From contig CAWJKZ010000021.1 in NCBI GenBank assembly GCA_963843575.1, forward strand, positions 256,001 through 320,000: DNA of 64,000 nucleotides, in the 5' to 3' direction. The notes below the pieces were generated by a model, which made no database searches, was not told the origin of the DNA, and saw only the letters and a program-made list of their open reading frames with translations. Source of the DNA: an uncultured Acidobacteriota bacterium. Its GTDB lineage: Bacteria > Acidobacteriota > UBA6911. The position numbers and the translations under genes were made by a program. Shown here piece after piece: positions 7,437-64,000 of the stretch (position 1 is its first letter; every line of letters begins with the position of its first letter).

Positions 7437-7608
7437 ACATCCTCCAAAGACCATTTCGGAATGGTGTGATTCTACTGCAAAACTGTCCAACCCGGGCACA
7501 TTTTTCCACGGTTAAACGAAGAGTGGGGGCTGCGGCTCGGGCAGCTGACGGACGCGGTTTGACTTGAGCTCCGCCCGGGCCTATCATCCGCCCATCGGGA
7601 GGAGGCGT

Positions 7609-8094: not shown

Positions 8095-8131
8095 TCCCGC
8101 AGAGCCGGCCCGGTAGGAAAAATGGTCGCGG

Positions 8132-8908: not shown

Positions 8909-9004
8909 GGCCCCTCCCGATTGAAATAGACCGTGCCGTCGATCCCGCGTTATATACTTGTGCGGATTATAGGATCTCCGTCCAACACAATGCAGGAGGA
9001 AGTC

Positions 9005-9685: not shown

Positions 9686-9726
9686 CCTCAGGCGGGTCCG
9701 GGCTGAAGAGGCTGGAACTGAAGTAA

Positions 9727-9890
9727 TTTGGAGTGCGGCGCCTCGGCGGCCTCGGCGCCGCTTTCACTCGTCCTACGGCAGAAATGCTCGGCGCCTCGGC
9801 GCCACGCCGAATTGCGAGATGCGACCCGGCGACCTCGGCCATTGGTGGCGCCGAGGCGCCGCCACCAAAGCGGCGTCGAGCCGCCGCACT
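9727..9890. repeat. GC-rich intergenic palindromic element (REP/MITE-like family B)
   Basis: Termini AGTGCGGCG...CGCCGCACT with internal GGCGCCTCGGCGCC/GGCGCCGAGGCGCC arms; related copy at ~49012-49107. Confidence 0.6.
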
Positions 9891-9972
9891 TCACAATCAA
9901 CCGTTGGAATAAGTAGCGCGAAGTTTTTCGTTTTGCCGTATTCTTGCCGCGAACGATCTGGAGGGTAAGTCC

Positions 9973-11547: not shown

Positions 11548-11659
11548 ACCAAAAAGTGGGCCGCGGCGGCTCGACGCGGCTCCTGATGAGGCGTGGACCG
11601 TTCGATTGCCGGAGCACTCCGTGGAGTGTCCGGCCGCCGTCATTCCCTGGAGGTGAGGC

Positions 11660-12664: not shown

Positions 12665-12740
12665 AGCAGGGGCGGGCTGCAGACCGCCCCCGCCTTGTAC
12701 CTCCCGATCAGAGTTCCTACAAACCCGCGCCGGCCAGGGC

Positions 12741-15038
12741 TCAGAACCTGTACGTCAGGTTCGCGAACACATTGCGCCCGGGCTCGAAAACCCGCACGCC
12801 CGAACGGAATGGATCCCGCTGATACGACAGGTGCTCCCGGAAGAGCCTGTCGAACACATTGTTCAGCCCGACCGTGAGGCGAAACGCCTTCAGGGAGGTC
12901 CCGACCCGGATATTGGCCAGCCCGTACCCTGCGGTGGCTTCCTCCCGCATGTCCGTGTCGATGTTGCGCTGGGCGCCGGCCAGGACGCCCTCGACCTCGG
13001 CGGAAAAGCGTCCGTTGTCGAACCGCAGCCCGGAGCGTGTGGTCAGGGGCGGCATCTCGGCGAGGTTTTTGGAGAAGATGTTCCGCCCGGGTACCGGGTC
13101 CTGGATGCCACGCGTATAGGAAAGCGAGTTCGAGAAAAACACCCGGGACGTGATCGAATAAACCGCCTGCACCTCGGTCCCGTAAATCGTGGCATCGACG
13201 TTTTCGTATGACCGGGCGTTGGAGTTCATAATCCCGGCCACGGAATTCACCTTGACCGCCCGACGGACGGTGACGAAGTTGTCGATCCGGTTCAGATAGA
13301 ACGTCGAGCTGAGGAACAGCGCCTGCCGCCGCAGGGAAACGGACCCGTCCGTGCCGGTGTTGCGGCTGGGCAGCAGCCCAGGGTTGCCGACCCAATCCGA
13401 ACCGGCCCTGCGCAGCCCGAAGTACCGTTCCGTGGCGTCGGGCACCCGGACCGTGCTCCCCACCCCTCCGGAGAACTCGAGACCCCCCGGGGCCGAGTAC
13501 GTCAGCCGCGCCGCGCCCGAAGGGTAGACGTCGCTGGTAGACGTGGCACGCGTCGAGTTGTAGGCGTAGTAAAGATTCGTGTTGGCCTTGAGCGGATCCG
13601 CCTCGTGCTGGGTCCGATCCACGCGGCCGCCGAACTCCAGCTTGAGGCGGTCGGTCAGGGGCCTGTGGTACTCGGCATAAGCGCCGAACGACACGGCGGT
13701 GACGTCGGGGATGGAGGACTGCGACATGTATCCCATCCCCGCCATCTGGGTGGAGGCATCCCAGTACCGGCTGAAGGCTTCGAAGCCGAGCGTCAGGTTG
13801 TTCATCCCGGCCTCGAGCTTGCCGCCGAAGGTCCTGGTGACGGCAAACGTCCCCATACTGTAGTCCCGCGCCATTTTGTAGGAAGACGTCCTGTACGCGT
13901 CGGTCATCCAGTGACGCACGCCGGTGAAGTATCCGTGGACCCTGACGGAGTCGACCGGGCCTGCCATACGGTCGACCTGGTACCCGAAGCTGACCCGGTC
14001 GGTGTTGTCGTAGAGGGCGTCCATCTGCAGATAGGGGTACAGGACGCCGTCGGCCTCCTGGCGGGTGTACGCCAGTTGCAGCAGTTGATTGGCCGCCGGG
14101 GAGAACGAAATGCCGGCCCACGCGGTACCGATCTGGAATGCGGGGTTCTCCTGGGCTTCGGGCCGGTAGTTGCCATAGCGCGTGAAGAGATTCCCCGAGC
14201 CGTCGCTATACGGGTCGGAGCGGCGATACGAGTAGCCACCCAGGACCGAAAACCGGTCTCCGGCAAAGGAGGCGGTCGCCGAGGGATTCACGAAACCGTA
14301 GGCGCCGGCCGCGAGGTTGCCGGTGGCCCGGAAACCCTTCTCGGGCCTCCGGGTCACGATATTGACCACGCCGCCGAGGCTGCCGCTGTTTTTCACGTCG
14401 AACGGCCCCTTGCCCACCTCGATTCGATCCACCTCGGCGAAGTCGACGTGAAAGGCGGGGGGATCCATGTGATTGGGGCAGGCGCCGTAGACGCGCTGGC
14501 CGTCGATCAGCACATTCAGGTCCTTGCTCTGGAAGCCGCGCAAGACCACGTCGTTGGCGATCCCGCCCTTGCGGATTTTCGAGATGCCGTTGGTTTCCGC
14601 CAGCGCCTCCCCGACGTCGCGCGCCGGGCTCTCGCGTGTCTTCGATGCCTCGAGGCTGTCGCGCGGCGCGGTTCCCACGACCGTGACCATCTCCCTGATG
14701 GTGGCGATCTCGAGCCTCACGTCAAAGGTCCGGGCCTCCCCGGCCGAGACGCGGACGCGGCCGGCCTGGGCAGGCTCGAATCCCTCCAGCTCTGCGGCGA
14801 CTTCGTATTCCCCCGCAGGAACGCCCGGCACGCGATAGAGTCCGCGCGTGCCCGAGACGGCCAGCCACACCTTCCCCGTGTCCAGGTTGCGCAGGCTGAC
14901 ACGGGCCCCGGGCAGCCCCGTCTGGTTTGGCCCGAGCACGAGGCCTGCTATTTCGGCCGGGGGTGGCAGCGCCCCGGCGGGTTCCTGCAATCCGAACGTC
15001 ACGATGAGAACGAACAAGATACAGCATCGAATAACCAT
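12741..15038 (-). CDS. TonB-dependent copper receptor, OprC/NosA-like, with N-terminal CarboxypepD-like domain
   Basis: Plug motif GACPNHMDP (CxxxM), HWM (HxM) motif, Met-rich loops, C-terminal EPGRNVFANLTYRF. Confidence 0.85.
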   Translation of the reverse strand: MVIRCCILFVLIVTFGLQEPAGALPPPAEIAGLVLGPNQTGLPGARVSLRNLDTGKVWLAVSGTRGLYRVPGVPAGEYEVAAELEGFEPAQAGRVRVSAGEARTFDVRLEIATIREMVTVVGTAPRDSLEASKTRESPARDVGEALAETNGISKIRKGGIANDVVLRGFQSKDLNVLIDGQRVYGACPNHMDPPAFHVDFAEVDRIEVGKGPFDVKNSGSLGGVVNIVTRRPEKGFRATGNLAAGAYGFVNPSATASFAGDRFSVLGGYSYRRSDPYSDGSGNLFTRYGNYRPEAQENPAFQIGTAWAGISFSPAANQLLQLAYTRQEADGVLYPYLQMDALYDNTDRVSFGYQVDRMAGPVDSVRVHGYFTGVRHWMTDAYRTSSYKMARDYSMGTFAVTRTFGGKLEAGMNNLTLGFEAFSRYWDASTQMAGMGYMSQSSIPDVTAVSFGAYAEYHRPLTDRLKLEFGGRVDRTQHEADPLKANTNLYYAYNSTRATSTSDVYPSGAARLTYSAPGGLEFSGGVGSTVRVPDATERYFGLRRAGSDWVGNPGLLPSRNTGTDGSVSLRRQALFLSSTFYLNRIDNFVTVRRAVKVNSVAGIMNSNARSYENVDATIYGTEVQAVYSITSRVFFSNSLSYTRGIQDPVPGRNIFSKNLAEMPPLTTRSGLRFDNGRFSAEVEGVLAGAQRNIDTDMREEATAGYGLANIRVGTSLKAFRLTVGLNNVFDRLFREHLSYQRDPFRSGVRVFEPGRNVFANLTYRF

Positions 15039-49011: not shown

Positions 49012-49107
49012 GAGTGCGGTGCCTCGGCTCGGCCCGCAACATGTCACCGATCCTGCCCGGCGCCGAGGCGCCGCGTTTACTGCGGCGGCCAGCCGCCGCA
49101 CTCCAAA
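49012..49107. repeat. Family B palindromic element, second copy
   Basis: GAGTGCGG...CGGCGCCGAGGCGCC...GCCGCCGCACTCCAAA. The end is the reverse complement of the 9727 start TTTGGAGTGCGGCG. Confidence 0.55.
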
Positions 49108-49128
49108 GCGCACACGACAGATCGAGAG

Positions 49129-52100
49129 CTAGTCGGGGATGACCATCGGCGGAAGCGCCGCCATGTAGCTGTAACCGTCGTCGTGCATCAGGCCGAAGGC
49201 GTGGAGGGAGCGGTCCGACCGGATCCGGATGTACCCGTCGAGGCGGGCCGGGAGGCCGGGGAAGAACCCGGTCAGGTACTCGGCTGTCCGGGTGCCCGGC
49301 GCCAGCGTCCGGGTCACCGACCGGTCCAGCGTGCCGTCGGGATTCCAGAGCTCGACGGTGTAGCTGGCGGTGTCGGCGTTGACATTCAGCAGTGCGATCG
49401 CTGTTTTGTAGCCGCTCGAATTTGCCGCCGAAGGAATAACGAACTCCCGGAGCGGTTCGCCGGAGAGCTGGAAGCTTGTCAGGAATGTGCTGGCCGTGCC
49501 GGTATCGAGCAGCCGTTCGTTGGTGAACGAGATCGTGCCCCCGAAATGGTCCACGCTGCTTTCGACTTCGAGCCAACCCGTAGCGATCAGCGCCGAAGTC
49601 ACACCGAATATCGCGGCGAGGTCCAGCTTCAGCTGCTCCCCTGGTGCGAGGTACTGGACATAGGGGAGCCCGATGACCGTCCCATCGGGTTCGTGCGGTG
49701 TGATCGTGAAATCGGCCCCTTCGCCATTGGCATTGATCAGGTTCAGGATTGTCACAAAGCCAGGAGCGATGGCGAACTGAGGTGAATACAGGTGCTTTAT
49801 GCCCCACCGTTGCAAATCGATGCCGTTCAGCGCCGCGAGCGCTCCCTTCGGACCGTAAAACTCGGTCATGAGGAGGCCGCCCGTCGAGGACATCCGGTAA
49901 TAACCGCTTTCCGAGGACTCCGCCTGCAGTAGAGTCGCGGTGTGGGAGCTGCGCACGTCAGTCAGTTCCTCGGTTTCGGTGAAGGTTCCGTAATCCGGGT
50001 CGTACACTTCGGCCGTATCCAGGCCATCCTCCTCGTCCTCGTCGAAGCCACCCGCGATCAGCACCTTTCCGTCTTTGAGAAGCGTGGCCGTGTGGCTGGT
50101 GCGGGGAGAGTTCATCGTGCCGGCCGCCTCGAAGGCATTCGTGTCAGGATTGAAGCTCTCGACGGAATCGAGGGAGACGGAACCGTTCGTACCGCCGGTG
50201 ATCAGGACGCGGCCGCTCTCGAGGAGCGTCGCCGTGTGCGACGCGCGCGCATCGATCAGGTTTCCGACAGTGGTGAATGTCCCCTTCATCGGGTCATAGA
50301 GCTCCGCCGACGCCAGGTATTCCCCGTTGTAGCCGCCCACAATCAGGACCTTTCCGTTTTTCAGACGTGTTGCCGTGTGGAGGGACCGGGCGACGTTCAT
50401 TGGACCCGTGAGATTGAAGTTGTCGCGGGACGGGTCGTAAAGTTCCGCGCTATTCGTCACGGTGCTGCCGTCAGTCCCGCCGGCCAGCAGGACTTTGCCA
50501 TTTACTAGCAGGGTCGCAGTGTGCGAATCCCGCCCGGCAGTCATCGGGCCCGAAGTAAGGGTGAACACGTCATTGTCGGGATCGAATATCTCGGCAGTGT
50601 CGTTGATACCATCCGAGCTTTGACCTCCCGCGATCAGCACGCGGCCGTTTGATAGCAGGGTCGCGGTGTGGCGCACCCGTTCGACGTTGAGAGAACCCGG
50701 GGTAGTCGTGAAGAGTTCACTGTCCCCCTCTTTGTCGTCGGGATCATAGGTCTCCGCGCTCGCGAGGATGTCGTTCGCGTCCTTTCCGCCGGCGATCAGT
50801 ACCCTGCCGTCCAGCAGGGAAGTCGCCGTATGCCCTTCTCTCCTCGCATTCGTGGTGTCGGACGCTGCGGAAAACGAGTTCGAACTCGGTGAGAAGATCT
50901 CCGCGGAATCAAGCGTCGCGGACGACCGGCGCCCGCCCACGATAAGCACGTTCCCCGACGCCGATCCGGTCGTCGCCGCCGAAACCGTTTCGGACGCGCG
51001 ATTGGTCGGATAGGAGACAGTGTCGTCGGCAGTCTTTATCGAGACGCCCTGCATCGCTTTGCGAGACGAGTCATAAGCCAGCTGGTTGTAGGCGGGGTTT
51101 ACAAAGTTCAGTTCGGCGGTATAGTCCTTTTCATCCTTGTCGCCATCGCCGTCAAGGTCCTTGCCGTCCCGCGAGACTTCGGGAGCAATCCACTCGTAGA
51201 GCGGCTTCCGGAAGAGCGGAAACCCGTCCATTTCGTCCATGGCGTACCCGAGCCAGGTCGCCCTGACGCGGCCGGTCGAGATGTAGCCGACCACCTTCGG
51301 TTCGTCCGTGTTGACGGCCAGCCAGCCGGTCTTCTCGGTGTAAGGATCGAGTCCGAAAATCTGGTCGACCGTCGATGCGTACTGCCCGCGTGCCGGTATC
51401 GTAATTTCTACCGGGTCCGTGATGTCGTCGCCCTCCAGCTCCGATCCGTAGTTATCGTAGGCATAGATCTTAACTGCAGCTGGCTGGTCAGAGAGGTTGA
51501 TCAGGGTGAGACCCGTGAACCGGTCCGTGGAGCTTATGTACTTCGTTCCGGCGATCCGATTCGTGCTCCTTAATAGCTCGATCTCGCCGGCGACAAAATC
51601 GAGAACGGCGAGCACCTGTCCATTCGGAGCCAGCGCCACCGTGGAGGGCTGATCGACGGCGTAGTTCGGATCGTCACCGACCAGCACTTTGCCGCAGACC
51701 GCGAAGCTCGTCAGACTCTGCTGGTAGGCGCTGTCGTCGTCCGAAGACGCGTAGTACGCGTACGACGAGTCCGGGGAGAATGCGACGTTGGCGGATCCCA
51801 CGGTGTTGGTCCCTGCCGTCGGCGCCTCGAAAGCAGCTCCGGGATCGTAGGTCGGAACGATCGTCAGGGTAGCCTCGTTGTGAATGACCCAGTTCAGCCC
51901 GTTGGGGGCCAAGGCGGTAAAACCGGGCTGTGTTCCTGCGCCACGCACGTCGAGGACTTCGCCTGTCGCCGCCTTGAAGACCATGAATTTGCCGGCAGCT
52001 GAACTGTCGCTGCCGTCCCGGGAAGCGACGATGGCCACTTCGCCATCCTTCGATAGCACGACGCTATTGAAGATCGAGAACGTCGCATAGGAGGTGTTGT

Positions 52101-53829
52101 CGGTCCCGCTGGCCTTCTCCACCTCGTCGCGCACTTTGATGGTGTACTTCTTTGAAAGGCTGCCGGCGTCGATGCACACCATCTCGTTCGCATTCGTATC
52201 CAGGAGGAAAAGAAGTGCGCCGTCAGGAGATGTGGTGATCTGAGCCGGGGCCAGGAACCCGGTCACCCGCGCCAGTTCCTTCCCGGAATCCACGGAGAAT
52301 TTGATCAGCTCACCAGATCCGGTCGAAGAGATGTAGCCCACGGATCCGTCCGGAGAGAGCGTCAACCAGCTGCCGAATCCGAACGTCGCCCCCGTGAAAC
52401 TCCAGGTCGCCTTTACCCGGTAGGTTTCCATGTCGACGACGAAAATGCGGTTTTCCAGCGCCGAAACAATGGCCAGCGTCCTGCCGTCCTTCAGCAGCGT
52501 CATCAGGGCGGGCTTGCCCCCCGTGACGATCCGCTGCAAGGTTGCGCCGGTCTCGGCCGAAAACACCAACACGGCGCCGGAGCCTGTGTAGGGCACAAAC
52601 CCCCGCCGCGAATCGGCTGAGAACAAGATGTTGGGGGAAACGTTGTCCGTCTGGTCCAGGTTGAGATCGAATTCGAGCGGAAGCGCGTTCTGGCCTCCGG
52701 AGAAGAACAACGTGCCGTTACCGAAAACCGTGATCGCATGCCCGATCCGGGCAGAGGTCATGCTTTGGCCCGGTGAAAACGTAGCGGTCGTGGGATCGTA
52801 GATTTCGGTGGTCGCGAGCGCACCGTTGCCGCTGTTACCGCCGGTCACTAGAATACGGCCGTCGGGGAGCGCTACCGCCACGTGCATGTACCGTGCCGTG
52901 CTCATCGACGCGGTCGCGGAGAATTCCCTCGTATTGGGGTCCCATACCTCGGCAGTGCTGAGGAAACCATCCTCGCTGCGCCCCCCCGCGATAAGCACTT
53001 TGCCGCTCGGCAGAAGGGTTGAAGTGTGTCCGAGCCGTTCGATTGTCATGTCGTTGGCGGTCGAGGTAAACGTGCTGTCGTCCTCGTCGTCCGTACGGTC
53101 GCTGTCCGGCTCGAAGGTTTCGGCCAGATCCAGGACCGAGCTGACGTCGCGGCCGCCGGTAATCAGGACCTTACCGTCCTGTAGCAGCGTTGCCGCATGG
53201 TCCTGGCGCCCGACGGCGAGCGATCCGTCGGTGGCGGTGAACTTCCCGGAGACAGGGTCGTAGATTTCAGCGGTGGCCGAATAGTTCGTCCCGTCGTAGC
53301 CCCCGGCGATGAACACGGTGCCGTCCTTCAGCAAAGTCGCGGTGTGCCCGGTCCGGTAGGCGGTCATGTTCGAAGAGGTCTTCTTGAACTCTCCCGTGCC
53401 GGGGTCATAAACCTCGGCGGTGTCGAGCGGTTCCCCGTTTGTCCCGCCGGCAATCAGCACTTTGCCATTGGAGAGCAGCGTGGCCGTGTGCGACCGGCGC
53501 TGCTCGTTCATTTCGCCGGTAGCCGTGAAAGTATTGGACGCGGGATCGTAAAGTTCGGCGGTGTCGAGGTAACTTCCGTTGAAGCCGCCCGCGATGAGCA
53601 CCTTCCCATTCGGCAGAAGCGTTGCCGTATGCCGTTCGCGGCCTTCGGTCATCGTTCCCAGAAACTTGAACGTGCCGGCAGCGGGCGAATAGAGCTCCGC
53701 CGTGGTTCCGGCGATCTCGCGGTTCGGGGCGACGCGGGCGAAGAATCTCTGTTGTGCAAAACCCGTGACATATAAAAGAAGGACGATTACACAAACAATA
53801 AGGACTCTGAGTGCGTTCCTGCTAGACAC
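49129..53829 (-). CDS. 1,566-aa secreted protein: kelch propeller + YVTN-type propeller + second kelch propeller + C-terminal beta domains
   Basis: Two blocks of R..HTATLL.NGKVLIAGG...AE.YDP repeats flank a YVTN-like region. Signal peptide present; GTG 53829 follows GGGAGG. Confidence 0.88.
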   Translation of the reverse strand: MSSRNALRVLIVCVIVLLLYVTGFAQQRFFARVAPNREIAGTTAELYSPAAGTFKFLGTMTEGRERHTATLLPNGKVLIAGGFNGSYLDTAELYDPASNTFTATGEMNEQRRSHTATLLSNGKVLIAGGTNGEPLDTAEVYDPGTGEFKKTSSNMTAYRTGHTATLLKDGTVFIAGGYDGTNYSATAEIYDPVSGKFTATDGSLAVGRQDHAATLLQDGKVLITGGRDVSSVLDLAETFEPDSDRTDDEDDSTFTSTANDMTIERLGHTSTLLPSGKVLIAGGRSEDGFLSTAEVWDPNTREFSATASMSTARYMHVAVALPDGRILVTGGNSGNGALATTEIYDPTTATFSPGQSMTSARIGHAITVFGNGTLFFSGGQNALPLEFDLNLDQTDNVSPNILFSADSRRGFVPYTGSGAVLVFSAETGATLQRIVTGGKPALMTLLKDGRTLAIVSALENRIFVVDMETYRVKATWSFTGATFGFGSWLTLSPDGSVGYISSTGSGELIKFSVDSGKELARVTGFLAPAQITTSPDGALLFLLDTNANEMVCIDAGSLSKKYTIKVRDEVEKASGTDNTSYATFSIFNSVVLSKDGEVAIVASRDGSDSSAAGKFMVFKAATGEVLDVRGAGTQPGFTALAPNGLNWVIHNEATLTIVPTYDPGAAFEAPTAGTNTVGSANVAFSPDSSYAYYASSDDDSAYQQSLTSFAVCGKVLVGDDPNYAVDQPSTVALAPNGQVLAVLDFVAGEIELLRSTNRIAGTKYISSTDRFTGLTLINLSDQPAAVKIYAYDNYGSELEGDDITDPVEITIPARGQYASTVDQIFGLDPYTEKTGWLAVNTDEPKVVGYISTGRVRATWLGYAMDEMDGFPLFRKPLYEWIAPEVSRDGKDLDGDGDKDEKDYTAELNFVNPAYNQLAYDSSRKAMQGVSIKTADDTVSYPTNRASETVSAATTGSASGNVLIVGGRRSSATLDSAEIFSPSSNSFSAASDTTNARREGHTATSLLDGRVLIAGGKDANDILASAETYDPDDKEGDSELFTTTPGSLNVERVRHTATLLSNGRVLIAGGQSSDGINDTAEIFDPDNDVFTLTSGPMTAGRDSHTATLLVNGKVLLAGGTDGSTVTNSAELYDPSRDNFNLTGPMNVARSLHTATRLKNGKVLIVGGYNGEYLASAELYDPMKGTFTTVGNLIDARASHTATLLESGRVLITGGTNGSVSLDSVESFNPDTNAFEAAGTMNSPRTSHTATLLKDGKVLIAGGFDEDEEDGLDTAEVYDPDYGTFTETEELTDVRSSHTATLLQAESSESGYYRMSSTGGLLMTEFYGPKGALAALNGIDLQRWGIKHLYSPQFAIAPGFVTILNLINANGEGADFTITPHEPDGTVIGLPYVQYLAPGEQLKLDLAAIFGVTSALIATGWLEVESSVDHFGGTISFTNERLLDTGTASTFLTSFQLSGEPLREFVIPSAANSSGYKTAIALLNVNADTASYTVELWNPDGTLDRSVTRTLAPGTRTAEYLTGFFPGLPARLDGYIRIRSDRSLHAFGLMHDDGYSYMAALPPMVIPD

Positions 53830-53887
53830 ACATCCCTCCCACAACTGTCAGTCGAAAACACAACCGGACTCTTCAGAACAGCTTGAA

Positions 53888-53911
53888 TACGAGCGCCGGC
53901 GCGTTTGTTAC
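53888..53911 (-). promoter_or_regulatory. Putative ECF promoter for the kelch gene
   Basis: Minus strand GTAAC-AAACGCGCCGGCGCT-CGTA (15-nt spacer). Confidence 0.65.
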
Positions 53912-53919
53912 AGGCACGC

Positions 53920-53943
53920 GTAACAAACGCACCGGCGCGCGTA
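53920..53943 (+). promoter_or_regulatory. Putative ECF promoter for the bamA homolog
   Basis: GTAAC-AAACGCACCGGCGCG-CGTA (15-nt spacer), ending 24 nt before ATG 53968. Confidence 0.65.
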
Positions 53944-53967
53944 GTTAGGGGCGTTTCTGGAGGATCT

Positions 53968-56540
53968 ATGCAATTGCTCTTGCTGTGCATGCTGCTGGTG
54001 CCAATGCCGCCGCTCCAGGCCCGACCTGACGACGTTCTGGTCGAGCGCGTGGACGTCCGGGGGAACCGCCGCATCCCGGAGGACACGATTCGTTTTTACA
54101 TCCAGTCCAGGCCGGGCGAACGGTACGACGAAGGGAGGCTGGAGCTCGACCTGCGCGCCCTGTACAAATCAAACTTCTTCGAATATATCGAGATCGACGA
54201 GAAAGACGGCGACACAGGAAAGGTCGTTACCTTCATCCTCCGGGAAAAACCTCTCATCCGGTCGATCCAGTATGCGGGGGCCAAGTCCTTTACGGAATCC
54301 AACATCCTCGAGCACTTCAAGGATAAGAAGGTCGGATTGACCGTCGACAGCCAGTACGATCCGGCCAAGATCCGCACGGCCGAGAGGTCGCTGCGGGACC
54401 TCATGCAGTTGAACGGAAAGCCGCTGGGCACAGTCCGGACCGAGGTAACCAGCGTTCCCCCGTCCGGCGTGCGCGTCCGTTTCGTCCTGGACGAAGGGCC
54501 GAAGGTGCGCATCGGAGCGATCCGGTTTACCGGAAACACGAAGATGAGCGACGGGGCTTTGAAGGACGCGCTGAAGCTGACGAAAGAGCGCAGCCTGATG
54601 AGCCTGTTCAAGGGCACCGACAAGTTCCACGCCGGGAAGCTCGAGGCGGACGTCGAGATGAACCTGAAGGCCTTCTACAAGGAAAACGGCTACATGCAGG
54701 TCCAGGTCGGGCAGCCGATGACCCGCATCTGCGAAGGCCCCCGCGGATTCATCCCCATGCTCCGCAAAACCCGCCTGCAGTACCTGATCGAGCTTCCCGA
54801 TCGACGCCGGCGACCAGTACCGGCTCGGGGACCTGACCCTCAGGGACTGCGGCGCCTTGAAGTGCGAGCCGCTGACGACTCTTTTCGGACTGCACAAGGG
54901 GGACGTGGTCAATTTCAAGCGCATCAAGGACACGCTGGAAGAAATCAAGAAAATCTACGGCGGCATCGGCTACATCAACTGGTCCTATATCCCGGAGCAG
55001 GAATTCGATCAGGCAAGCAAGACGATGAACCTCACGTTCACGTTCCAGCCTGACAAGATGTTCTACGTGCACCGGATCAACTTCAGCGGCAACACGAAGA
55101 CGCGCGACCGCGTCATGCGCCGCGAGTTCCTGCTCGAGGAGGGGAAACTCTTCAGCAGCCGTTTGCTGGACATTTCCGTTTTGCGGCTGAACCAGCTCGG
55201 GTTTTTCGACAAGATCGAGGAGAAAGACTACGATCTCAAGACGAACGACAAGGATGCGACGGTCGACATCAACCTCAAGGTGAAGGAGAAGAGTCAGCAG
55301 TCCATCGGACTGACGGGCGGCGTCAGCGGAATCTCGGGCAGTTTCCTCGGGGTGAACTACGGCACCAACAACTTCCTGGGCAGGGGAGAAAGCCTGGAAG
55401 TCAGCGTCACAGGCGGAACACGCTCGGCCGGATCTCATGCTTTCGTACAGCATACCCTACTTTCTGAACACCAGGTGGACGATGGGTATTTCCGCCTACA
55501 AGATGCGGTACCGGTACGACACCTACACGATGTACGGTATGACCAGTTACTCGACCGGACATCCCGTGTCCCTGTTCACCCAGCACACGACGGGCGCAAC
55601 CTTGAACGTGGGGCGCCCGCTCGGCAACACCTTCTGGCGCCTGGGAGCGAGCTACACGTACCAGAGCATCGGGATCGGGGGAATTGCATCGGGGTATGAA
55701 TCCTTCGCCCTGGGACAGCTCGGTGGGGAGCACTCCGAACGGCGACACCCAGAAGGCACTAAGCGGGATCATCCGGAGCGAAATAACGCCGAGCCTTTCG
55801 TTCAACACGACGAACAGCTACTTTATGCCGACCCGCGGCAAGAAGTCTGAACATCGCGATGGGAGTCGCCGGCGGAATCCTCTCGGGCGACTACAAGATC
55901 CTGCGCCCCTCGGTCGAATACCGCCACTTCGTCCCGGACCGCTGGATCAGCCACCGTCGAAATACGCTTGGATTCAGGCTGTTGGGTCAATATATCCGCT
56001 CCTACGGCGGCTCGACGATCCCGTTCTATGAACGGTTTTTTGTAGGCGGGGAGACGACGCTGCGCGGTTTCGACCTTCGTTCCATCAGCCCTATCGCGAT
56101 CTCCTCTACATACAAAAACGATCTGTTCAACAACACGTCGATCGACCCGGTCACCGGCTTGCTCAAAATCGACAAGAGCATTATCTCGATCGGAGGCGAT
56201 TCGCTCGGGCATGGGCAGTGCGGAGTACCGGATGCCGATTGCCGGTCCGCTGTCGATGTCGCTGTTCGCGACGTAGGGGTGAACCGTGTCTCGCACGTCA
56301 AAGGGATCGGGAAGTTCGGGGACAACGACGGTCGATCTCGTCGGCGCGACCAACACCGTGCTGCGCAGTTCGACGGGGATCGAATTTCAGTTCGTGCTTC
56401 CGATGGTGAACGCGCCGTTCCGCCTGATCTTCGCGGTGAACCCGAACAGGTGGGACGGAGACATCGCGCTCGGCACGAACGTACTGCATGCGCACGAACC
56501 GAGCCACGACATCAAGTTCACAATCGGCCGCACATTCTGA
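53968..56540 (+). CDS. bamA: BamA/Omp85 outer-membrane assembly factor homolog, interrupted by ~7 single-base frameshifts (error or pseudogene)
   Basis: POTRA motifs VRGNRRI, FTGNTKM and FSGNTKTRDRVMRRE; NNFLGRGE; FFVGGETTLRGF; C-terminal KFTIGRTF. Frame changes at ~54797, 55430, 55722, 55844, 56207, 56268 and 56318. Confidence 0.85.
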
Positions 56541-56542
56541 GC

Positions 56543-56585
56543 CACGGATTCACACGGATCCGCGTGGAATCCGTGTGAATCCGTG
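56543..56585. terminator. 17-bp perfect hairpin between convergent bamA and TBDR genes (family C core)
   Basis: CACGGATTCACACGGAT-N9-ATCCGTGTGAATCCGTG. Confidence 0.7.
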
Positions 56586-56591
56586 TCCCGG

Positions 56592-59500
56592 CTAGAATTC
56601 GAAGCGGAGGCCGGCCTGGAGGTTTCGGGGAGTGCCCTGAATCGTGGAAATCTGGCCGAAGCTTGCCGGTGTCACAAGGTTTGTCTCGGGCAATCCGAAA
56701 TTCGTGTGATTCATGACGTTGTAGGCTTCGGCTCGAAGCGCGAGGTGGCTCGTTTCGCCGAGGCGGATACGCTTTGTGAGGGCCAGGTCGATGTTGAAGT
56801 ACCTGGGCCCGAGAAACGAATTCCTCCCGGAGCTTCCGATCGAGCCTGCCTCGGGGAACGTGAACTCAGCCATCGAATCGGCGGAGAAGTAGTACACTCC
56901 ATCCGAGGTCCTGTAGATCTTCCCCTTGGCGCCGCTGCCGTCGTAGTCCGCATAGGTTGTCGTGTCCGCCCCGGCGGTGCGCCGACCAGAACTGATCGAG
57001 AACGGTTTGCCCGCCTCGTAGACCAGCAGAACACCCGCATCCCAGCCACCAAAGAGGGCGTCCATCCACTTGGGGCCTGAGCTCAGGAGCCAGCGGTTCT
57101 TCCCGAAAGGCAGCGAGTAGACGGCGCTCACATTGAAGGCGTGGGGCCTGTGGAAGTCACTGCGCGCCTTGTTCAGCCCCACGTCGAAGTTGTCGATCGG
57201 GTTCGAGAAACCGTTCCCCTCGGCTGAGGTGTTGTCCATCGACTTGCTCCAGATGTAGTGCGCATCCAGCAGCAGTCCCTCGCGTCGGTGGCGCAGGTTC
57301 ACCTGCAGGGAGTCGTACCAGGACCGGCCGGCGTTCGTGCCGTAGATCAACTGGTTGAACTGCGGGAAGTTCCGGAGATAGAAACTCGACATAGGCCGGC
57401 GCCTCGATAGCGGCTGTAGTAGTTCTTGTCTACGGTGTCGGCGGCCGTGCCGGCCTGTCCCTGGTCGATGATGCTTCCGCCGATCGCATTAATGGCCGCA
57501 TTGGCCGAACCGAACATCTTGACCAGGGTGTTGGTCGAGCTGACCGGCGTGCCAATCGCTCGAAACGACTGCAACTCGCGAAAGGCTTTCAGGAAATCCT
57601 CCTCGATCCTGGGCTGGTTCAGATCGACGTTCATGTAGAGCTTGATTCCCCTGCGTTCCGACGTAGCCGGCTTCGAGAACGGTGTCACTCCGGATCTGGC
57701 GTTGGAGGGTGAGGGCAAATTGATGGACATAGCCGGTGCGCAGCTTCGGATTCAGCACGGCGACCGACTCGGAGCGCGTCACCGACGGCGTCATGTCCGG
57801 CGAAGATCTGGGCGACAGGCTCGGGATTCCGTCGCTCAACCGCACATCCTTTCCCCCGGTGTTCGGATAGGAGGTTACGGTCTGGGAGAATCCCGTCGTG
57901 TAAGCGTCGACGGTATTATTGACTGCCCCTGACAGGTGTTCGTAGTAAAGCCCGTAGCCTCCGCGCAGTACGGTCCGTCCGCTGTTCTTCGGGTTCCAGG
58001 CAAAACCGAACCTCGGGGCGAAGTTGTTGACGTCCCGGGCATACCAGTGCTTCGTCGTCTCGATCTTGAAGTTGGAGATCTGGGAGACAGCGTCGATGCT
58101 GGACGCCTGATCGAGGGTCGCCTGCAGACCGCTGCGCTCGGTGGGCATCGCGCCAAGCTCGTATCTCAGCCCGAGGACGACGGACAGATTCGTGCGAACC
58201 CGCCAGTCGTCCTGAAGGAATGCGCTGTAGGCCCTGCCGTTGTAGGTCCGTTCTCGTTTCGTCCCGGCATCTTTGAATTCCTCGAGATCGCTGTAGAACG
58301 TCTGGGTAACTTTGTCCATACGTCCGAGGAGATCATTGTAAAGACCCTCGAACCGCTGCCTGTCGGCCGAGCTGATCACGGCGGTCCCCACCGGACCGAT
58401 ATTGCCGGTAGGAGTGTTTCCGTTGTCCCGCGCGAACGTCACGTTCGGCCAGGTCCCTTCGTCGGTCGACGAGTTCAGGGTCGTCCACGCGAACTCCACA
58501 CCCGACCGGAAATAGTGGCGGCCCCGCTGTGTCGCGGCGAAGTCGTTTGCCTGGATGACCCGGTTGTCTCTTGCCTTTGCGAATGCCGGGCTCAGCGGAT
58601 CAGTCCAGCTGTTGGACAGGAGCATGGCGCTGTTCTGCCGCCCCGGACGCAGGGAATCGAGCCAGCTTCTCCGTACGCCGAGGCGCAGTGAATTGGTCCA
58701 TTGCGACGAAAAAGTCCAATCCGAACCGACCGCATGCGAGTAGCTGCGCCCATCGTCGGTTCCGCCCTTTTCCCCCGGATACCGAGACTCGTTTCCGTTG
58801 AGCCAGTCTACGGAGGAGTTCTTATCCCAGTTCATCCGGTAGAAGAGCTGGTGCTTCTTCGTAAGAGCGTGATCGATCCGCACCGTCGCCTGATGGTCAT
58901 AGCTGTTTACCGGACTGTTGAATTGATAGCCTGAGGTGTTCAGATCGTCGCCGATGTCGTCGTTGTTGGGTTCCGGCAGTTTCGCCAGGAGCGTCGCAAC
59001 CTGGGAGTTGATCCCGAGCCTGCGCCTGTCGTTCTTGGCAATGTTGTAGCTCTGCAGATTGCCCGTGTTCGGCGTGTACCACCTGAATATTCCGGTCTTC
59101 GCTTCGGAAGTAAGGACCAGCCGGTTGCGGATCACATCCTGTTTGGTCTTCCTTCCCTGGTAATTGATGAAGAAGAATGACTTGTCGGGAATCACGGCTC
59201 CGCCAAGCGAGACGCCGAACAGGTGCTGGTTGAAAGCAGGCTGGTCGACATCGTCCGCGTTGTTGAAGAAGTTGTTCGCGTTGAACGACTTGTTCCGGAA
59301 ATATTCAAACGCGTTGCCCGACCAGCGGTTGGCCCCGGAGCGGGTGACCATCTCAACATGCGCGCCGGTGCCGGGGCCGGAGATGGGGCTTGACACGCCG
59401 TTCACAACCTGAAACGACGCGATCGAGTCCGCATTGAGGGGAATCGCGGAGAGCCCAAAAGCCGGGGTGAGCGGATCGTTTGCGTCGAGTCCGTCGATCC

Positions 59501-60059
59501 GGAGGTTCGAAGTCGCTTCGCGCGTACCATTCACGCGCGAGTGGCTCTCGTCGCCGGCCTCGACCTGAACGCCGGGCACATATGCGGCCAAGCTGGTGGG
59601 GCGTCGCTCAATCTGTGGCAACGCGACCATTTCCTGAGAATCCATACGCCCGCCCATCACAGGCTGCGGGTCGGTCAGGATCGGCCTCACCGTTGTTGCG
59701 ATGGACGCGCCCGGGTTGCCCGGTTCCAGATGGAACCGCTGGAACGAGGTCGTCCCGGCCTCTACCACTACGCCGCTGCGCACTTCCGACCGGAAGTTCG
59801 GGGCTTGCACCGTTATCGTGTATTCACCGGGCGCAAGCGTCGCAAAAAGGAAGACTCCGCCTTTGTCTCCCGTGATCTCGACGGGTTTCTTCATATCCTC
59901 CCGGGCCGCCAGGATGTGGCAATCGGGAATTCCCTCACCCGACGGGTCGAGGACCGCACCCTCCAGGCGTCCGACCGAATGCTGACAATAAACCGGCAAT
60001 GAGAGCAGGGCGATGACCAGGAATGAAATCGCGGCAGCAGACAATAGTCTTGAAAGCAT
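56592..60059 (-). CDS. Oar-like TonB-dependent receptor, frameshifted at ~57652 and ~57392
   Basis: GAVLDPSG, VTRSGANRWSG, LGLRYE and NNFAPRFGFAW motifs. ORF pieces 57489-60197, 57347-57730 and 56592-57392 join into one protein ending QAGLRFEF. AGGAGG RBS before ATG 60059. Confidence 0.85.
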
Positions 60060-60094
60060 GAAAGCTCCTCCTGTTGATACCTGTGCGTTCTGAG

Positions 60095-60118
60095 TACGCA
60101 GGAGCAGGGGGGTGTTAC
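60095..60118 (-). promoter_or_regulatory. Putative ECF promoter for the TBDR
   Basis: Minus strand GTAAC-ACCCCCCTGCTCCTG-CGTA (15-nt spacer). Confidence 0.65.
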
Positions 60119-60169
60119 GGACCGTGAACAAAAACTTCCAATCCCGCCGGCAGGCTGTACCACCTGTCT

Positions 60170-60193
60170 GTAACATCCGCCGCCAATTTCGTA
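60170..60193 (+). promoter_or_regulatory. Putative autoregulatory ECF promoter of the sigma operon
   Basis: GTAAC-ATCCGCCGCCAATTT-CGTA, ending 12 nt before ATG 60206 (near-leaderless; no obvious SD). Confidence 0.65.
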
Positions 60194-60205
60194 CCAATAT
60201 CCGGA

Positions 60206-60805
60206 ATGGATCAGGAGGATGTGACTCTCATCGAGAGGACTCTGCTGGGCGACGAGTCTGGTTTCGCCGAACTGGTGAACCGCTACGAGGCGGCTGTCTG
60301 GAAGACCGTCTACCGGACGCTGGGGCACTGTGCAGATACCGAAGATGCCGTCCAGGAGATCTTCCTTCGTATATTCAAGGCCCTCGCCACGTTCGACCGC
60401 GCTCTCCCCTTCGGCCCCTGGATCGTGCGGATTGCCACCAACTACTGCATTGATCAGTTGCGACGCCGGCAGAGACAGCGGTGCGACTTTCTGCTGGACC
60501 TTTCCGACGCGGAACAGGAACGGGCGCTGGCGGATTTCTCCCGGAACGGCGATTTTCAAGCTCTTCTGGGCAAGGCTCCCGAGACGTACGAGAAGGTCGC
60601 CGAGGCGTTCCTGAACAATCTGGACCCCAAGTACAAAACGGCCTTTGTCCTGAGAGAACTCGAAAAACACAGTTACACGGAAATCGCCGAAGTTCTGGGT
60701 ACGACCCAGGTCACAGCACGTGTGCGGGTTTCCAGGGCGCGAGCTAAAATCCGGCGGAAATTCGAGGGATATCTCTCCGGAGAAGAGTTGGACAGTCAGT
60801 CATGA
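60206..60805 (+). CDS. ECF RNA polymerase sigma-70 factor
   Basis: FAELVNRY, EDAVQEIF, WIVRIATNYCID and SYTEIAEVLG...RVSRAR motifs. Confidence 0.93.
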   Translation: MDQEDVTLIERTLLGDESGFAELVNRYEAAVWKTVYRTLGHCADTEDAVQEIFLRIFKALATFDRALPFGPWIVRIATNYCIDQLRRRQRQRCDFLLDLSDAEQERALADFSRNGDFQALLGKAPETYEKVAEAFLNNLDPKYKTAFVLRELEKHSYTEIAEVLGTTQVTARVRVSRARAKIRRKFEGYLSGEELDSQS

Positions 60806-61242
60806 ACATGTGCAAGTTGCTGGATTCGTATCGGGATGGCGAACTCGCGCCGCGGCAGCGCTCCGAGTTCGAGCTTCACCTGCGATCGTGTCCGCGGTGT
60901 CGGCTCGCGCAGTCGCTCCTCAACAACATCGTCAGTTCCATCAGGGCCGGCGAGCCGGTGCTACCCTGCGGGCTGGCGGAACGCATCGCCAGCCGCGCTT
61001 TCCAGCAAAAATCGACCTGGGAAAGTTACATCATTTCGTGGCTGCGGCCCAAACCGGTATGGGCGGCGGTGGCGCTGTCGGTGCTGATCCTGTCGGGAGT
61101 GCTCGCCTGGCCAGGCAGGACGGAATCAAACGAGATGTACAGTCTCTATGAAAGTCTCTGGAGGAAAAGCACGGAAGGATATTTCCTCCAGACCGAGGAC
61201 GAGTTCATGCGCTGGGTACAGTACGACGGGAGACTGCAATGA
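60802..61242 (+). CDS. Zinc-finger (zf-HC2) membrane anti-sigma factor
   Basis: FELHLRSCPRC (HxxxCxxC); one TM segment; overlaps the sigma stop codon. Confidence 0.88.
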   Translation: MNMCKLLDSYRDGELAPRQRSEFELHLRSCPRCRLAQSLLNNIVSSIRAGEPVLPCGLAERIASRAFQQKSTWESYIISWLRPKPVWAAVALSVLILSGVLAWPGRTESNEMYSLYESLWRKSTEGYFLQTEDEFMRWVQYDGRLQ

Positions 61243-61643
61243 ACGAGCGGTTGCGTGCGTTGACAGTGCTGGCGGCAGTTTTTATTCTCGGGTGCCTCGT
61301 CGGCGGCGGACTTTTTTGTGCGTTGTCGTCCAGATTCCTTGCTCGAGAACCCGGCCCGTTCTTCGGGCCACCGCCTCCGCAGAACTGGACGGCGGCGCTG
61401 AAACTCGCGCCCGATCAGGGGGTGAAATTCCGGGAAGTTATGAAGGAGTCGCGGCTGAAAATCGACGTGGTGATGCAGGGAAACGCACCGAGAATGGAGG
61501 CGATCCGGGCCGAGATGAATCAGAAGTTAAGCGCGATCCTGAATGACGACCAGAAAAAGGAGTTCCAGGCACTGGTGCGCAGATTCGAAGAACGCATCCC
61601 CCCTTGGAAAAAGGACCACCCCAGCAATCCCCCGCCCTTTTAG
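61239..61643 (+). CDS. Spy/CpxP-like (LTxxQ-type) membrane-anchored periplasmic protein
   Basis: VFILGCLVGG anchor; LKLAPDQ and ILNDDQKKEF motifs. Confidence 0.7.
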   Translation: MNERLRALTVLAAVFILGCLVGGGLFCALSSRFLAREPGPFFGPPPPQNWTAALKLAPDQGVKFREVMKESRLKIDVVMQGNAPRMEAIRAEMNQKLSAILNDDQKKEFQALVRRFEERIPPWKKDHPSNPPPF

Positions 61644-61929
61644 GAAAGAAGACCGCCGTCCGTGGAGAGTGATGCAGGCGCAAAAGCCAATTCTCCACGT
61701 TCATCAAGGCCCCCCTTCCCGACAGCAAATCTCTGTGATGTTGAGTCTCGCCGTGCTGTCTGCATTGACATCCTGGACTTTGGGTCACGAGTTGCCGTTA
61801 CCGGGCAATCCGGGTAATGGCCTTATCAGGCCCGCAGCCAAGGGTAGGCCAGGATGGAGGATTGGGCACGGATTCGTAGAGGATTGGGGTGGTCCGGTGC
61901 GGTTTCCGTTGAATCCGATCCGCGAGGGG

Positions 61930-63300
61930 TGACAGAGTGCAGAGTTCATGCTTGGTTCATCGGTTAGCTCGTCATGGACACAGGCGGCAGGCAACCGGCC
62001 TCATAATTGCCGAGAGATCTTTCGGGTCTCCTTTGGGGGCAGACCGCGCAGTAAGTCCGCCGGTTCAGGTCGAGGCGTGCCTTGCGTGCGGCATTGCGCC
62101 CTTGGTCCAGCTCGCGCGGCACATGATCGTCCCTGCCGTAGTACATTTCATCGGGAGTCTGGCCACGGAATGCGGAGTGGGGGAGCCGCACATTGTGCTC
62201 ATCAACGTAGAACGCCACGAGACGCCGGAGCGTGGAGAGGCTGTCGAGCGAGTTCAGATAGAGCCACTGATGCTTCAGCGTCCGCCACCAAGCCTCGATC
62301 ATTGAGTTGGAGAACCTGAGCTCGGTCAGGGCGATGACGCGGCGCAGCACTCCGGATTGGATGAGCTCGTCGACATTTCGGTTGACGTTTTCCACGCCGG
62401 CGTCCGCCACGACTGTCGGAGGCGCATCTGAGCAGGCGCCGCCCTGTCCCGCTTCGAGAAGGACGGAGATCGTGCTGGCAGGATCGAACTTGTCCGCCAG
62501 CCGCCAGGCCAGAATGCGACGGGAGAAGTTGTCGATGACGGCGTGCAGGAAAGCCTTGCTGCCGTCGAGCAGCCTGATGACGGTCGTATCAATGTGCCAT
62601 ACCTGGTTTGGCTGAGTTGTTCGGAGACCGACCTTGGGCTTGGCAGGATGAACACGTAGGCGGGGACGACGCCAACCGAAGCGGTGGATGAGTGTGTACC
62701 AGGTCGAAGGGGAAGCGAAGACCTTTCCGAGCCGTTGCGCGAGGATGGCGAGGGTTCCGGTTGGAACATGGCGGTACTACTCGGACCTGACCATCTCTCG
62801 AAGTCCGGGGACAGGAGGATCGGTCGTCGAGGCGACAGGCTTTCCGCGAGCTTGTCCACGAATGGTAGCGAGCCGGAGAGAGGCGCAAGAAACGCAGCAC
62901 GGCCCGAAGAGGCAGAAACTGACGAGCAAGGTCGATGGATCGCAGCAGTGAAGCCTTGGCTTTTCCCCCCGGCACGCGCTCGTTGGCCAGGCTGAATCCG
63001 GAGATGCGCAGCAAGACGACGAGGTTACGAAGCAGAGCGAGGAGTTTCCGGATACGCCGTCGGAGCATGAGAACCTCGTGCTGGAGTTCCTGCTCCTTCA
63101 TCGAGAGGACATCGAGGGTGGGGAGATTCGTGAAGCCAGCCCATCACGGTAGACGCGGGTATCCCCAGATCTATGGCAAGGGACGGATCTCGGGAAGTGC
63201 GGACGAGCTCTTTGAGACGGTGGTCATAGGAACGCTGGGGTCGGAGTTTGACACTCATGCCCCGATCATGGATAGCCGCGGGAAAAGTTCAACCCTGTCA
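61930..63300 (-). mobile_element. Degraded DDE insertion sequence (rve integrase core), TGACAG...CTGTCA ends, 5-bp TSD AGGGG
   Basis: Transposase pieces 63258->61964: YDHRLKE...GIPASTVMGW; PNQVWHIDTT...VIDNFSR...DAGVEN...NSMIEAWWRTLK...HN...PHSAF..QTP. In-frame TAG at ~62777 plus frameshifts. AGGGG at 61925-61929 and 63301-63305. Confidence 0.85.
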
Positions 63301-63442
63301 AGGGGCAACCGAAGCTGATCAGGCAGGTAGTGCGACAGTACGAGTCGTACGAGTAGAACGTTGTTAGAACGTTTGCCCGAAAAAGCCTCTTCAGAGACAG
63401 TGAATTGAACTGGAAAAGTGTTTTTTGATGAGGCTTTTGAAC

Positions 63443-63517
<75 letters not shown>

Positions 63518-63567
63518 GCAATGGTACGAAACGCAGGCAGCTAACATACAGGCAGTGGGGCGAGTTG

Positions 63568-64000
63568 TCAATCGCCCGGCGCGCGTTTCGGCCGCGAAAT
63601 CGCAGCGGGGCGCGCGCCCGTCGCCCGGACATAGTCCGCCTGGGACAGCACGATCTGCACGCCACGCACACCTGCCGACACCGAAATCGTCCCGAACGCC
63701 TCGGCGCTCAGGTCAAGGTACACCGGGTACTCTTTCCTGCAGGCCAGGGCGGTCACGCCACCCCGGACGTATCCCGTCAACGGCTGAACCTGTTTGAGCG
63801 GCACCGTCTCGACCTTCCGGTCACCCGAGACGTGGGCGAGCGCCTTCAGGTCGAGCTCCGCGTCCCCCGGAACCACCGCCAGGCACACGCCGAACCGGTC
63901 CCCGCGGACTACCAGGGTTTTAAAGACCTGCGCCGGCGGGAACCCGATTTTGCGCGCGACGTCCTCGGCGGTGAATTCGTCACCCTCGATCGCGTATTCC
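63568..64000 (-). CDS. ybaK: Cys-tRNA(Pro) deacylase YbaK (5' end outside window)
   Basis: QVFKTLV, LDLKALA, LTGYVRGGVT and ISVSAGVRG motifs. Confidence 0.9.
   Translation of the reverse strand, partial: EYAIEGDEFTAEDVARKIGFPPAQVFKTLVVRGDRFGVCLAVVPGDAELDLKALAHVSGDRKVETVPLKQVQPLTGYVRGGVTALACRKEYPVYLDLSAEAFGTISVSAGVRGVQIVLSQADYVRATGARPAAISRPKRAPGD

Follow-up and report, generated by a model that had tools for sequence, protein, structure and literature searches.

A candidate envelope regulon of an autoregulated ECF sigma factor, with a duplicated BamA among its predicted targets, in an uncultured Acidobacteriota bacterium

The stretch of 64,000 nucleotides analysed here, called the window, belongs to a 405-kb contig of an uncultured Acidobacteriota bacterium (GTDB lineage UBA6911; GenBank assembly GCA_963843575.1, contig CAWJKZ010000021.1; G000:C21:256001-320000 in our genome set). 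It contains a 12.5-kb block encoding a sigma factor of the extracytoplasmic function (ECF) kind, an anti-sigma factor, a membrane-anchored Spy-like protein, an Oar-type outer-membrane barrel, an exported multi-propeller protein (the Kelch protein) and a duplicate of BamA (BamA2). The four transcription units of this block share one promoter-like motif, GTAACA-N14-CGTA. Judged from the placement and conservation of this motif, they probably form the core of a small regulon of an autoregulated ECF sigma factor with ECF281-type gene context, whose targets would be its own operon, the barrel, the propeller, BamA2 and a distant Spy-like chaperone. The genome, G000, has a size of 6.68 Mb in 27 contigs and is 88% complete. 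A congener, G001 (81% complete), was used for comparison along with two sets of family loci, one of 28 loci with an orthologous sigma gene (52-58% identity) and another of 29 loci with the barrel subfamily.

Four transcription units sharing one motif

The original prediction had placed GTAACA-N14-CGTA upstream of all four units, and the motif scan bore this out. Exactly four matches were found in the window, when compared to a mean of 0.03 in shuffled sequences, and none of 100 shuffles reached four or more. All four were correctly oriented toward a gene and lay 12-58 nt ahead of its start codon, as measured from the end of the motif. The site of the ECF sigma operon (60170..60193, + strand), which would serve autoregulation, ended 12 nt before the ATG at 60206. 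The distance was 24 nt for bamA2 (site GTAACAAACGCACCGGCGCGCGTA, 53920..53943, + strand; ATG at 53968), 35 nt for the barrel gene (site 60095..60118, - strand; ATG at 60059), and 43-58 nt for the Kelch gene (site GTAACAAACGCGCCGGCGCTCGTA, 53888..53911, - strand), depending on whether the start is TTG 53844 or GTG 53829. Shine-Dalgarno-like runs were present ahead of the bamA2, barrel and Kelch starts, with GGAGGA preceding the ATG of bamA2 and AGGAGGAG that of the barrel gene. All four sites were conserved in G001, in which the DNA of the block was 82% identical.

The genome-wide scan gave a divided answer. The total was ordinary, with eight matches in 6.68 Mb against six for the reversed-pattern control, but the clustering was not, as four of the eight fell inside 6.3 kb. 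Placement also favored the motif: by a crude ad hoc classifier, five of the eight strict sites were in promoter position, in comparison with 15 of the 82 sites found for 30 variants with one mismatch (0-3 per variant). With the genome-wide total at background, the case for the motif stands on placement and conservation and not on enrichment. A weight matrix built from 25 family promoters was dominated by the AT-rich flanks of other genera and ranked unrelated GGAAC-type sites at the top; it was replaced by the strict pattern with the one-mismatch controls.

Conservation of the motif and a fifth target

In 25 of the 28 family loci, exactly one strict match was located approximately 40 nt ahead of the orthologous sigma gene, the same place as in the window. 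Only TTTcTGTAACAA and CGTAA were conserved in the aligned family promoters, with a free spacer between them. In these 25 loci the sigma start codon followed CGTAA by 6-12 nt, and no Shine-Dalgarno run was seen; as the start codon is so close to CGTAA, the sigma mRNA is probably leaderless or nearly leaderless. The 25 loci and the four sites kept in G001 support the earlier suggestion that the motif behaves like an autoregulated ECF promoter. A TGTAAC -35 element with a CG-rich -10 element has been mapped experimentally in another ECF group (PMC8315932).

A fifth strict site (C7:10537) was located 37 nt ahead of a gene for a 151-aa signal-peptide protein of the Spy/LTXXQ kind, with a Met/Gly-rich N-terminal stretch. 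The G001 ortholog matched PF13801 (E 1.1e-15) and PF07813 (E 1.1e-14) and was also preceded by the orthologous site. G001 contained five strict sites in total, all of which were orthologous to the five promoter-position sites of G000.

The Kelch propeller protein and the Oar-type barrel

The Kelch gene (49129..53829, - strand) encodes an exported multi-propeller protein of 1566 aa (1571 aa with the earlier start; Kelch_1 E 1.4e-89 and other matches). A hydrophobic N-terminal stretch, read as a signal peptide, is followed by a Kelch propeller and then a YVTN/PD40-like one; a beta-rich region separates these from another Kelch propeller and the DUF5719-like C-terminus, for which the atlas search returned only unnamed or DUF5719 clusters. 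The protein was 87% identical to its G001 ortholog and 45-46% identical to the copies on contig C17 of G000 and in G009, with 45-51% identity across the Kelch set. The ratio of nonsynonymous to synonymous substitution rates (dN/dS) against G001 was 0.089.

The barrel gene (56592..60059, - strand) encodes an Oar-type, TonB-dependent-transporter-like outer-membrane protein (PF25183 E 2.7e-95 and 1.2e-67; PF13620 E 2.4e-14), in which a signal peptide, a CarboxypepD_reg extension, a weak plug and a large OMP_b-brl_4 barrel follow one another. The Plug match (PF07715) reached 23.1 bits with a cut-off of 23.9, and 23.4 bits in the G011 relative; PF00593 gave a weak match only, and a phmmer search against solved structures gave no match. 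Identity of the window barrel was 42-52% to the motif-linked barrels of C17, G009 and G011 (42-55% mutually within the motif-linked set) and 24-30% to the other barrels in the window. The bamA2 and barrel genes converge on a perfect inverted repeat (56543..56585; arms of 17 nt, loop of 9 nt), which probably terminates transcription from both sides.

The Kelch ortholog was found divergently upstream of the barrel in 24 of the 29 family loci (23 of 29 in a second count), and four of the five exceptions were cut by a contig end. In a census that scored only five candidates per genome, the barrel subfamily was present in 38 of 50 family genomes and in the single genome of a second family, and in none of 85 genomes from 20 other families of the class (E 1e-150). 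This census, like the BamA2 tally of 40 genomes given below, includes a genome flagged as unpublished (G034), on which no claim depends.

A related module was present on C17 of G000 (L138, G000:C17:236000-254000, positions 6808-14943), where a 1008-aa Kelch gene is divergent from an 1178-aa barrel gene, followed by sigma, anti-sigma and Spy-like genes. The C17 sigma was 51% identical to that of the window, and the C17 units were preceded by GTCACG-, GTCACA- and GTTACA-N14-CGTA; separation of the window and C17 regulons may depend on base three of the -35 block. In genus g9, Kelch (1484 aa) and barrel genes are again divergent, with the strict motif ahead of both, and adjoin anti-sigma, Spy-like and sigma genes. 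The cluster proposed from the window is therefore conserved elsewhere, as a whole block in G001 and as a core of Kelch, barrel and sigma genes on C17 and in genus g9. From these comparisons, the Kelch-barrel pair appears to be old and conserved, and its capture by the window sigma lineage-specific. Some of the Kelch-barrel pairs in genus g2 have two-block sites of the GGAAC type, which a paralogous sigma may read.

Some further observations concern these loci. G001 was without the Kelch-barrel pair at the C17 locus. On G011:C52 (L153, 2649-8296), strict motifs were located ahead of a gene for a 604-aa secreted leucine-rich-repeat protein and ahead of a convergent barrel gene of the same subfamily, with a Kelch-like gene divergent and upstream of this motif-linked barrel. 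In g2 genomes (L140-L142, L146-L148, L154), the strict motif preceded two families of approximately 160-aa signal-peptide proteins with no Pfam match, and these sites were conserved across three or four genomes per family.

The duplicated BamA

The bamA2 gene (53968..56540, + strand; seven indels as assembled) encodes five POTRA domains and an Omp85 barrel, recognized as Pfam pieces. Its intact ortholog in G001 encodes 854 aa and scored 472.9 bits against TIGR03303 (cut-off 297.15), with all five POTRA domains, the RGF motif of the loop and the C-terminal signal retained. This G001 copy was 67% identical to BamA1 (572/852, one gap) and collinear with it. The intact BamA1 gene on C26 (878 aa, 492.7 bits against TIGR03303) is followed by a 228-aa gene, fabZ, lpxA and lpxI, and the view of bamA2 as an extra copy thus held. 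In a quick BamA tree, the two BamA2 sequences formed a long-stemmed clade within the family BamA radiation, near BamA1 (support 91, polytomy); one row of the tree (L011; 26% identity, branch length 10) came from a wrong open reading frame (ORF) and is to be disregarded. The stem of the BamA2 clade was 0.39, compared with 0.16 for BamA1. Only two genomes, both of one genus, were seen to have BamA2, and no gene of this type above 75% identity was found in 40 related genomes or 30 metagenome loci (best metagenome match 75%). On these sequence comparisons, BamA2 is best described as a duplicate at genus level that has changed at an accelerated rate and has a sigma-type promoter of its own. Two-partner secretion of the TpsB/TpsA type, which pairs a two-POTRA Omp85 with a cargo bearing a TPS domain, was considered and rejected: five POTRA-type stretches were counted in BamA2, its score satisfies the BamA equivalog model, and no TPS-type family was among the Pfam matches of the Kelch protein.

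According to the original prediction, BamA2 would be an Omp85 dedicated to inserting the co-regulated barrel and/or to displaying the Kelch propeller at the surface, as part of a self-contained module. This is consistent with the location of bamA2 between the Kelch and barrel genes under its own copy of the promoter, with the purifying selection acting on it, and with its long stem, which suggests a change of function after duplication. The strict motif was moreover found ahead of no other bamA, neither at 11 housekeeping-type loci (BamA1 included) nor at 30 metagenome bamA loci. On the other hand, BamA2 is a full, collinear BamA with no mark of a soluble-cargo translocator, its restriction to two genomes counts against a dedicated role, and the Kelch-barrel pair occurs without an adjacent second BamA in 24 of the 29 family loci and at the C17 module, where no BamA was found. 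Since the pair exists without a second BamA, it needs no private one, and the idea of a dedicated Omp85 is weakened to the point that we regard it as doubtful. Similarly doubtful is the larger picture of a relocatable cassette, in which the ECF sigma would switch on a substrate-specialized BamA2 and an Oar-type barrel exporting or anchoring its Kelch partner.

The sigma operon and its possible signal

The ECF sigma factor (199 aa, 60206..60805, + strand) consists of sigma-70 regions 2 and 4 only (Sigma70_r2, PF04542, E 2.4e-17; Sigma70_r4_2, PF08281, E 5.2e-15), and its dN/dS against G001 was 0.081. Its best NCBIfam model was SigW, with 113 bits and below the cut-off of 209. Directly downstream is the gene for a zf-HC2 anti-sigma factor (146 aa, 60802..61242, + strand; PF13490 E 1.2e-8), with one membrane helix at residues 84-104 or thereabouts and a predicted periplasmic tail of 42 aa. 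Alignment of 26 orthologs showed C4, H26, C30 and C33 to be invariant and the tail to be conserved. The third gene (61239..61643, + strand) encodes a membrane-anchored protein of 134 aa, in which two LTXXQ-like motifs occur. A profile built from 25 orthologs, which have conserved L(T/S)PEQ and LNxxQ motifs, matched E. coli Spy (3oeo, E 7.5e-8) and also 3o39 and 5wo1, and by this profile the product is a member of the Spy/CpxP (LTXXQ) family. The three genes, sigma, zf-HC2 anti-sigma and membrane-anchored Spy-like, recurred as a unit across the family. FecIRA-type signalling was rejected, as the Pfam scans found no STN domain on the barrel and no FecR-type anti-sigma. The quick ECF tree, from which seven rows were removed as repeats of the same genomic places (L015-L019, L102, L115; the four hits of L015-L019 are largely the same places and not independent), did not decide in its deep branching which of the two sigmas, that of the window or that on C17, is orthologous to the g2 sigmas.

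When the anti-sigma tail was co-folded with the Spy-like domain as a dimer, the interface score (ipSAE) was 0.50 (0.02, 0.50 and 0.50 in three runs), with 0.01 for the best control; contact agreement among the runs was at least 26% and the pLDDT of the partner at least 41. For reference, 116 of 157 solved complexes attained the mark used, as did 2 of 215 mismatched pairs, and scores up to 0.60 within the mark comprised 18 of the 157 solved complexes and both passing mismatches. The models hint that the Spy-like dimer may bind the anti-sigma tail.

By its gene context, rather than by group models or target motif, the operon fits the ECF281 type, for which a zinc-finger anti-sigma at +1, a PF13801 protein at +2 and a link to heavy-metal stress have been described (PMC7826278). 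The regulon could accordingly be imagined as a heavy-metal stress response with the Spy-like protein as a CnrX-like metal sensor. Besides the published link of ECF281 to heavy-metal stress and the kinship of ECF281 with CnrH, the matches of the third-gene orthologs and of the fifth target to PF13801, named 'Heavy-metal resistance', would agree with such a role, as would the Met/Gly-rich stretch of the soluble Spy-like protein. However, no His, Cys or Met was conserved in the periplasmic part of the 25 aligned Spy-like orthologs, and their profile, in spite of its match to Spy, retrieved no CnrX chain at E up to 1. The targets, moreover, are a BamA, a barrel and a propeller, and no efflux pump or metal transporter with the motif was found in G000. 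A metal response is thus improbable, and a regulon serving the envelope remains the preferred reading.

Observations weighing against the regulon

Several observations weigh against the envelope regulon proposed here. The motif totals were at the level of the reversed-pattern control both in G000 and in 50 related genomes, and the distance of 15 nt from AAC to CGT is one base below that of the sigma-W-type consensus. The barrel ortholog of g2, the largest genus, had no strict motif within 400 nt, and the strict motif preceded the barrel in only 3 of the 29 loci (G009, G011 and G019), so that the link from sigma to barrel must be limited to certain genera. G000 has two paralogous sigmas whose motifs are nearly identical, which makes the pairing of sigmas and sites ambiguous, and we infer the promoter role of the motif from comparison among genomes. 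The third operon gene of the window itself matched only PF07813 (LTXXQ, E 0.0046), below the Pfam cut-off, with its orthologs matching PF13801/PF07813, and one of the three co-folding runs scored 0.02. Finally, the frame of bamA2 is broken by seven single-base indels near 54794, 55426, 55722, 55843, 56210, 56268 and 56309, and that of the barrel gene is interrupted twice, near 57389 (2 nt) and near 57652 (1 nt).

Taken at face value, these nine frameshifts would make pseudogenes of bamA2 and the barrel gene and a decaying module of the block. Their confinement to 54794-57652, with the adjoining 4.7-kb Kelch gene and the other long genes of the window intact, is in favor of real decay. The coding sequences nevertheless appeared to be under constraint: dN/dS of bamA2 against G001 was 0.076 before and 0.085 after the first shift, at a dS of approximately 0.8, and the values for all six genes ranged from 0.065 to 0.133 between the congeners. 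Neither gene had in-frame stops beyond those resulting from the shifts, nor larger deletions. G001, intact in bamA2, showed seven one-base indels of its own, clustered in the sigma operon and in the 5' portion of the barrel gene, regions that are unbroken in the window. One-base gaps between the two assemblies were also frequent elsewhere, with 35 in 2.5 kb of flank, and three lay in a protease gene intact in G000. The gene for ClpB beside bamA1 was split into ORFs of 628 aa and 94 aa (L014, G000:C26:9000-19000; 5654-5938 and 6208-8094), probably by another indel error of the assembly. Three soil sequencing runs, with 5-7% of the sampled words, covered only one of the nine frameshift sites by a near-identical contig; this contig of 163 nt, with three other mismatches to the window, lacked the extra base at 55719-55722. 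On all these grounds the nine frameshifts are very probably assembly errors, and decay of the module is quite improbable.

Separated by 8 nt, the Kelch and bamA2 sites make up an inverted repeat of 24 nt that is 92% complementary, spacer included, and whose arrangement was kept in G001. The repeat hints at an origin of the bamA2 promoter by inverted duplication of the Kelch promoter. Although such a repeat might also be the operator of a dimeric regulator, the sites are hardly credible as operators or chance matches, since the remaining two share only the GTAACA and CGTA blocks, the single oriented site with free spacer and fixed distance to the sigma start in 25 family loci is the signature of a two-block promoter, and a chance origin is excluded by the shuffles and by conservation in G001 and the family loci.

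Genomic location of the block

The block (window 49128-61636) aligned to G001 over its 12.5 kb at a different genomic site in each congener, and on this comparison appears to be relocatable. In G001, it sits between two stretches that are adjacent in G000 (C13:717502 and 717484), and carries a 430-bp fragment of an ABC ATPase gene found 2 kb to the left of the block in the window. The flanks of the window were largely absent from G001, except for the last 647 bases (63354-64000; 85% identity to G001:C12); no match in G001 was found for 61644-63353. A GC-rich element with two hairpins (49050-49115), resembling repetitive extragenic palindromes (REP), lies just past the Kelch stop codon and abuts the left end of the block. 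It had 17 short-blast matches in G000, and nearly all of the 83 matches in G001 listed for the left-flank query fell on it, some in arrays that repeat every 117 nt. On the other side, 320 nt beyond the right end, lies a fragment of an rve_3 integrase/transposase core (61964-62410, - strand; E 2.4e-7); no recombinase was found inside the block. At the ends of the G001 block (L013, G001:C5:627000-646500), similar GC-rich stretches (GGCCC..GGCGCGC..GACGCC) were seen. Approximately 18 nt of the empty C13 site of G000 were replaced in G001, with no clear target duplication.

The tRNA island in which the original prediction had placed bamA did not hold: ARAGORN detected a single tRNA (Asn, 63443-63517) in the window as well as in the entire 405-kb contig, which rules out integration into a tRNA island.

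Discussion

The comparative evidence argues that the ECF regulon is real and neatly delimited, joining a described operon type to a target set of which the literature searched gave no description. We infer the reading of the motif by the window sigma, the nature of the signal and all functional links among the products from gene content and comparison. In the mechanism that we propose, the Spy-like protein and the anti-sigma tail would sense a condition in the periplasm, upon which the anti-sigma would be inactivated. As the signal we favor a load on protein folding or assembly over metal, on the model of CpxP and sigma-E; every product is exported, two of them resemble chaperones and a third is an insertase. 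The freed sigma would direct RNA polymerase to the bipartite element TGTAACA-N14-CGTA(A) and activate its own operon in positive feedback, along with the barrel, the Kelch propeller, BamA2 and the soluble Spy-like chaperone on C7. Barrel and propeller would most probably act together at the outer membrane, with the propeller as cargo or surface partner, as PopC is for Oar, or as a binding partner in uptake; Oar and PopC are a precedent for outward movement of a protein by such a barrel (PMC6434023), and the uptake role is equally conceivable. BamA2 and the soluble Spy-like protein would be genus-specific recruits that add insertion and chaperone capacity.

Among known systems, sigma-E/RseA/RseB of E. 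coli consists of an ECF sigma, a membrane anti-sigma and a periplasmic modulator, with an autoregulated regulon that includes bamA and chaperones. The window module resembles it in having a membrane anti-sigma with a putative periplasmic modulator, bamA and chaperone genes among the predicted targets, and apparent autoregulation. It differs in that the E. coli target is the housekeeping bamA, whereas here the target is a duplicate and BamA1 lacks the strict motif; the anti-sigma is of the zf-HC2 type, the modulator is Spy-like rather than RseB, and the sigma is SigW-like with a sub-threshold score. CpxP/CpxA and Spy offer a second parallel, in which a Spy/CpxP-family protein stands beside a membrane transducer and a second, soluble Spy-like protein is an output. 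In the window, however, the transducer is an anti-sigma and not a histidine kinase, and the Spy-like protein of the operon is membrane-anchored.

The FecI/FecR/FecA system and the Bacteroides systems of ECF sigma, anti-sigma and SusC also bring together an ECF sigma, an anti-sigma and a TonB-dependent-type barrel under sigma control. The window barrel has no STN domain, and its anti-sigma is zf-HC2 and not FecR. FecI-like groups are stated not to autoregulate (PMC3817407), in contrast to the window sigma, which the motif suggests to be autoregulated. Oar is a TonB-dependent transporter required for secretion of the protease PopC in Myxococcus xanthus (PMC6434023). The window barrel resembles it in its CarboxypepD_reg extension, putative plug and large barrel, a likeness in domain order and not from direct sequence comparison; it differs in that the plug is just below the cut-off and the presumed partner is a Kelch propeller, apparently Sec-exported and encoded next door.

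The module also matches ECF281, in the zinc-finger anti-sigma at +1, the PF13801-type protein at +2 (in orthologs) and the two-block autoregulation; the group description, as far as it was available to us, names no BamA, Oar-type barrel or Kelch propeller as targets (PMC7826278). The earlier statement that no described system has such a composition thus does not apply to the operon, which matches ECF281, and stands for the target set, for the literature searched describes the parts and not the combination of an ECF281-type operon with such targets.

Acidobacteriota have very many Oar-type barrels, and to our knowledge almost nothing is known of their cargo or control. The locus provides a testable regulatory handle, with one sigma, one motif and five promoters, and the conserved barrel-propeller pair hints at the protein with which one subfamily of barrels works. 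Should the propeller prove to be handled by the barrel, TonB-dependent protein export would extend beyond Myxococcus; the cassette reading, if true, would combine a display route so far known only from Oar/PopC with a sensor, a chaperone and an insertase. The locus is also a natural case of a duplicated BamA under a putative signal-dependent promoter, and would be an example of a substrate-dedicated BAM if BamA2 is specialized. The pair of sigma and promoter is a candidate orthogonal switch. Even if neither the export by the barrel nor the specialization of BamA2 is true, the locus would still represent a well-delimited envelope regulon of an uncultured soil lineage.

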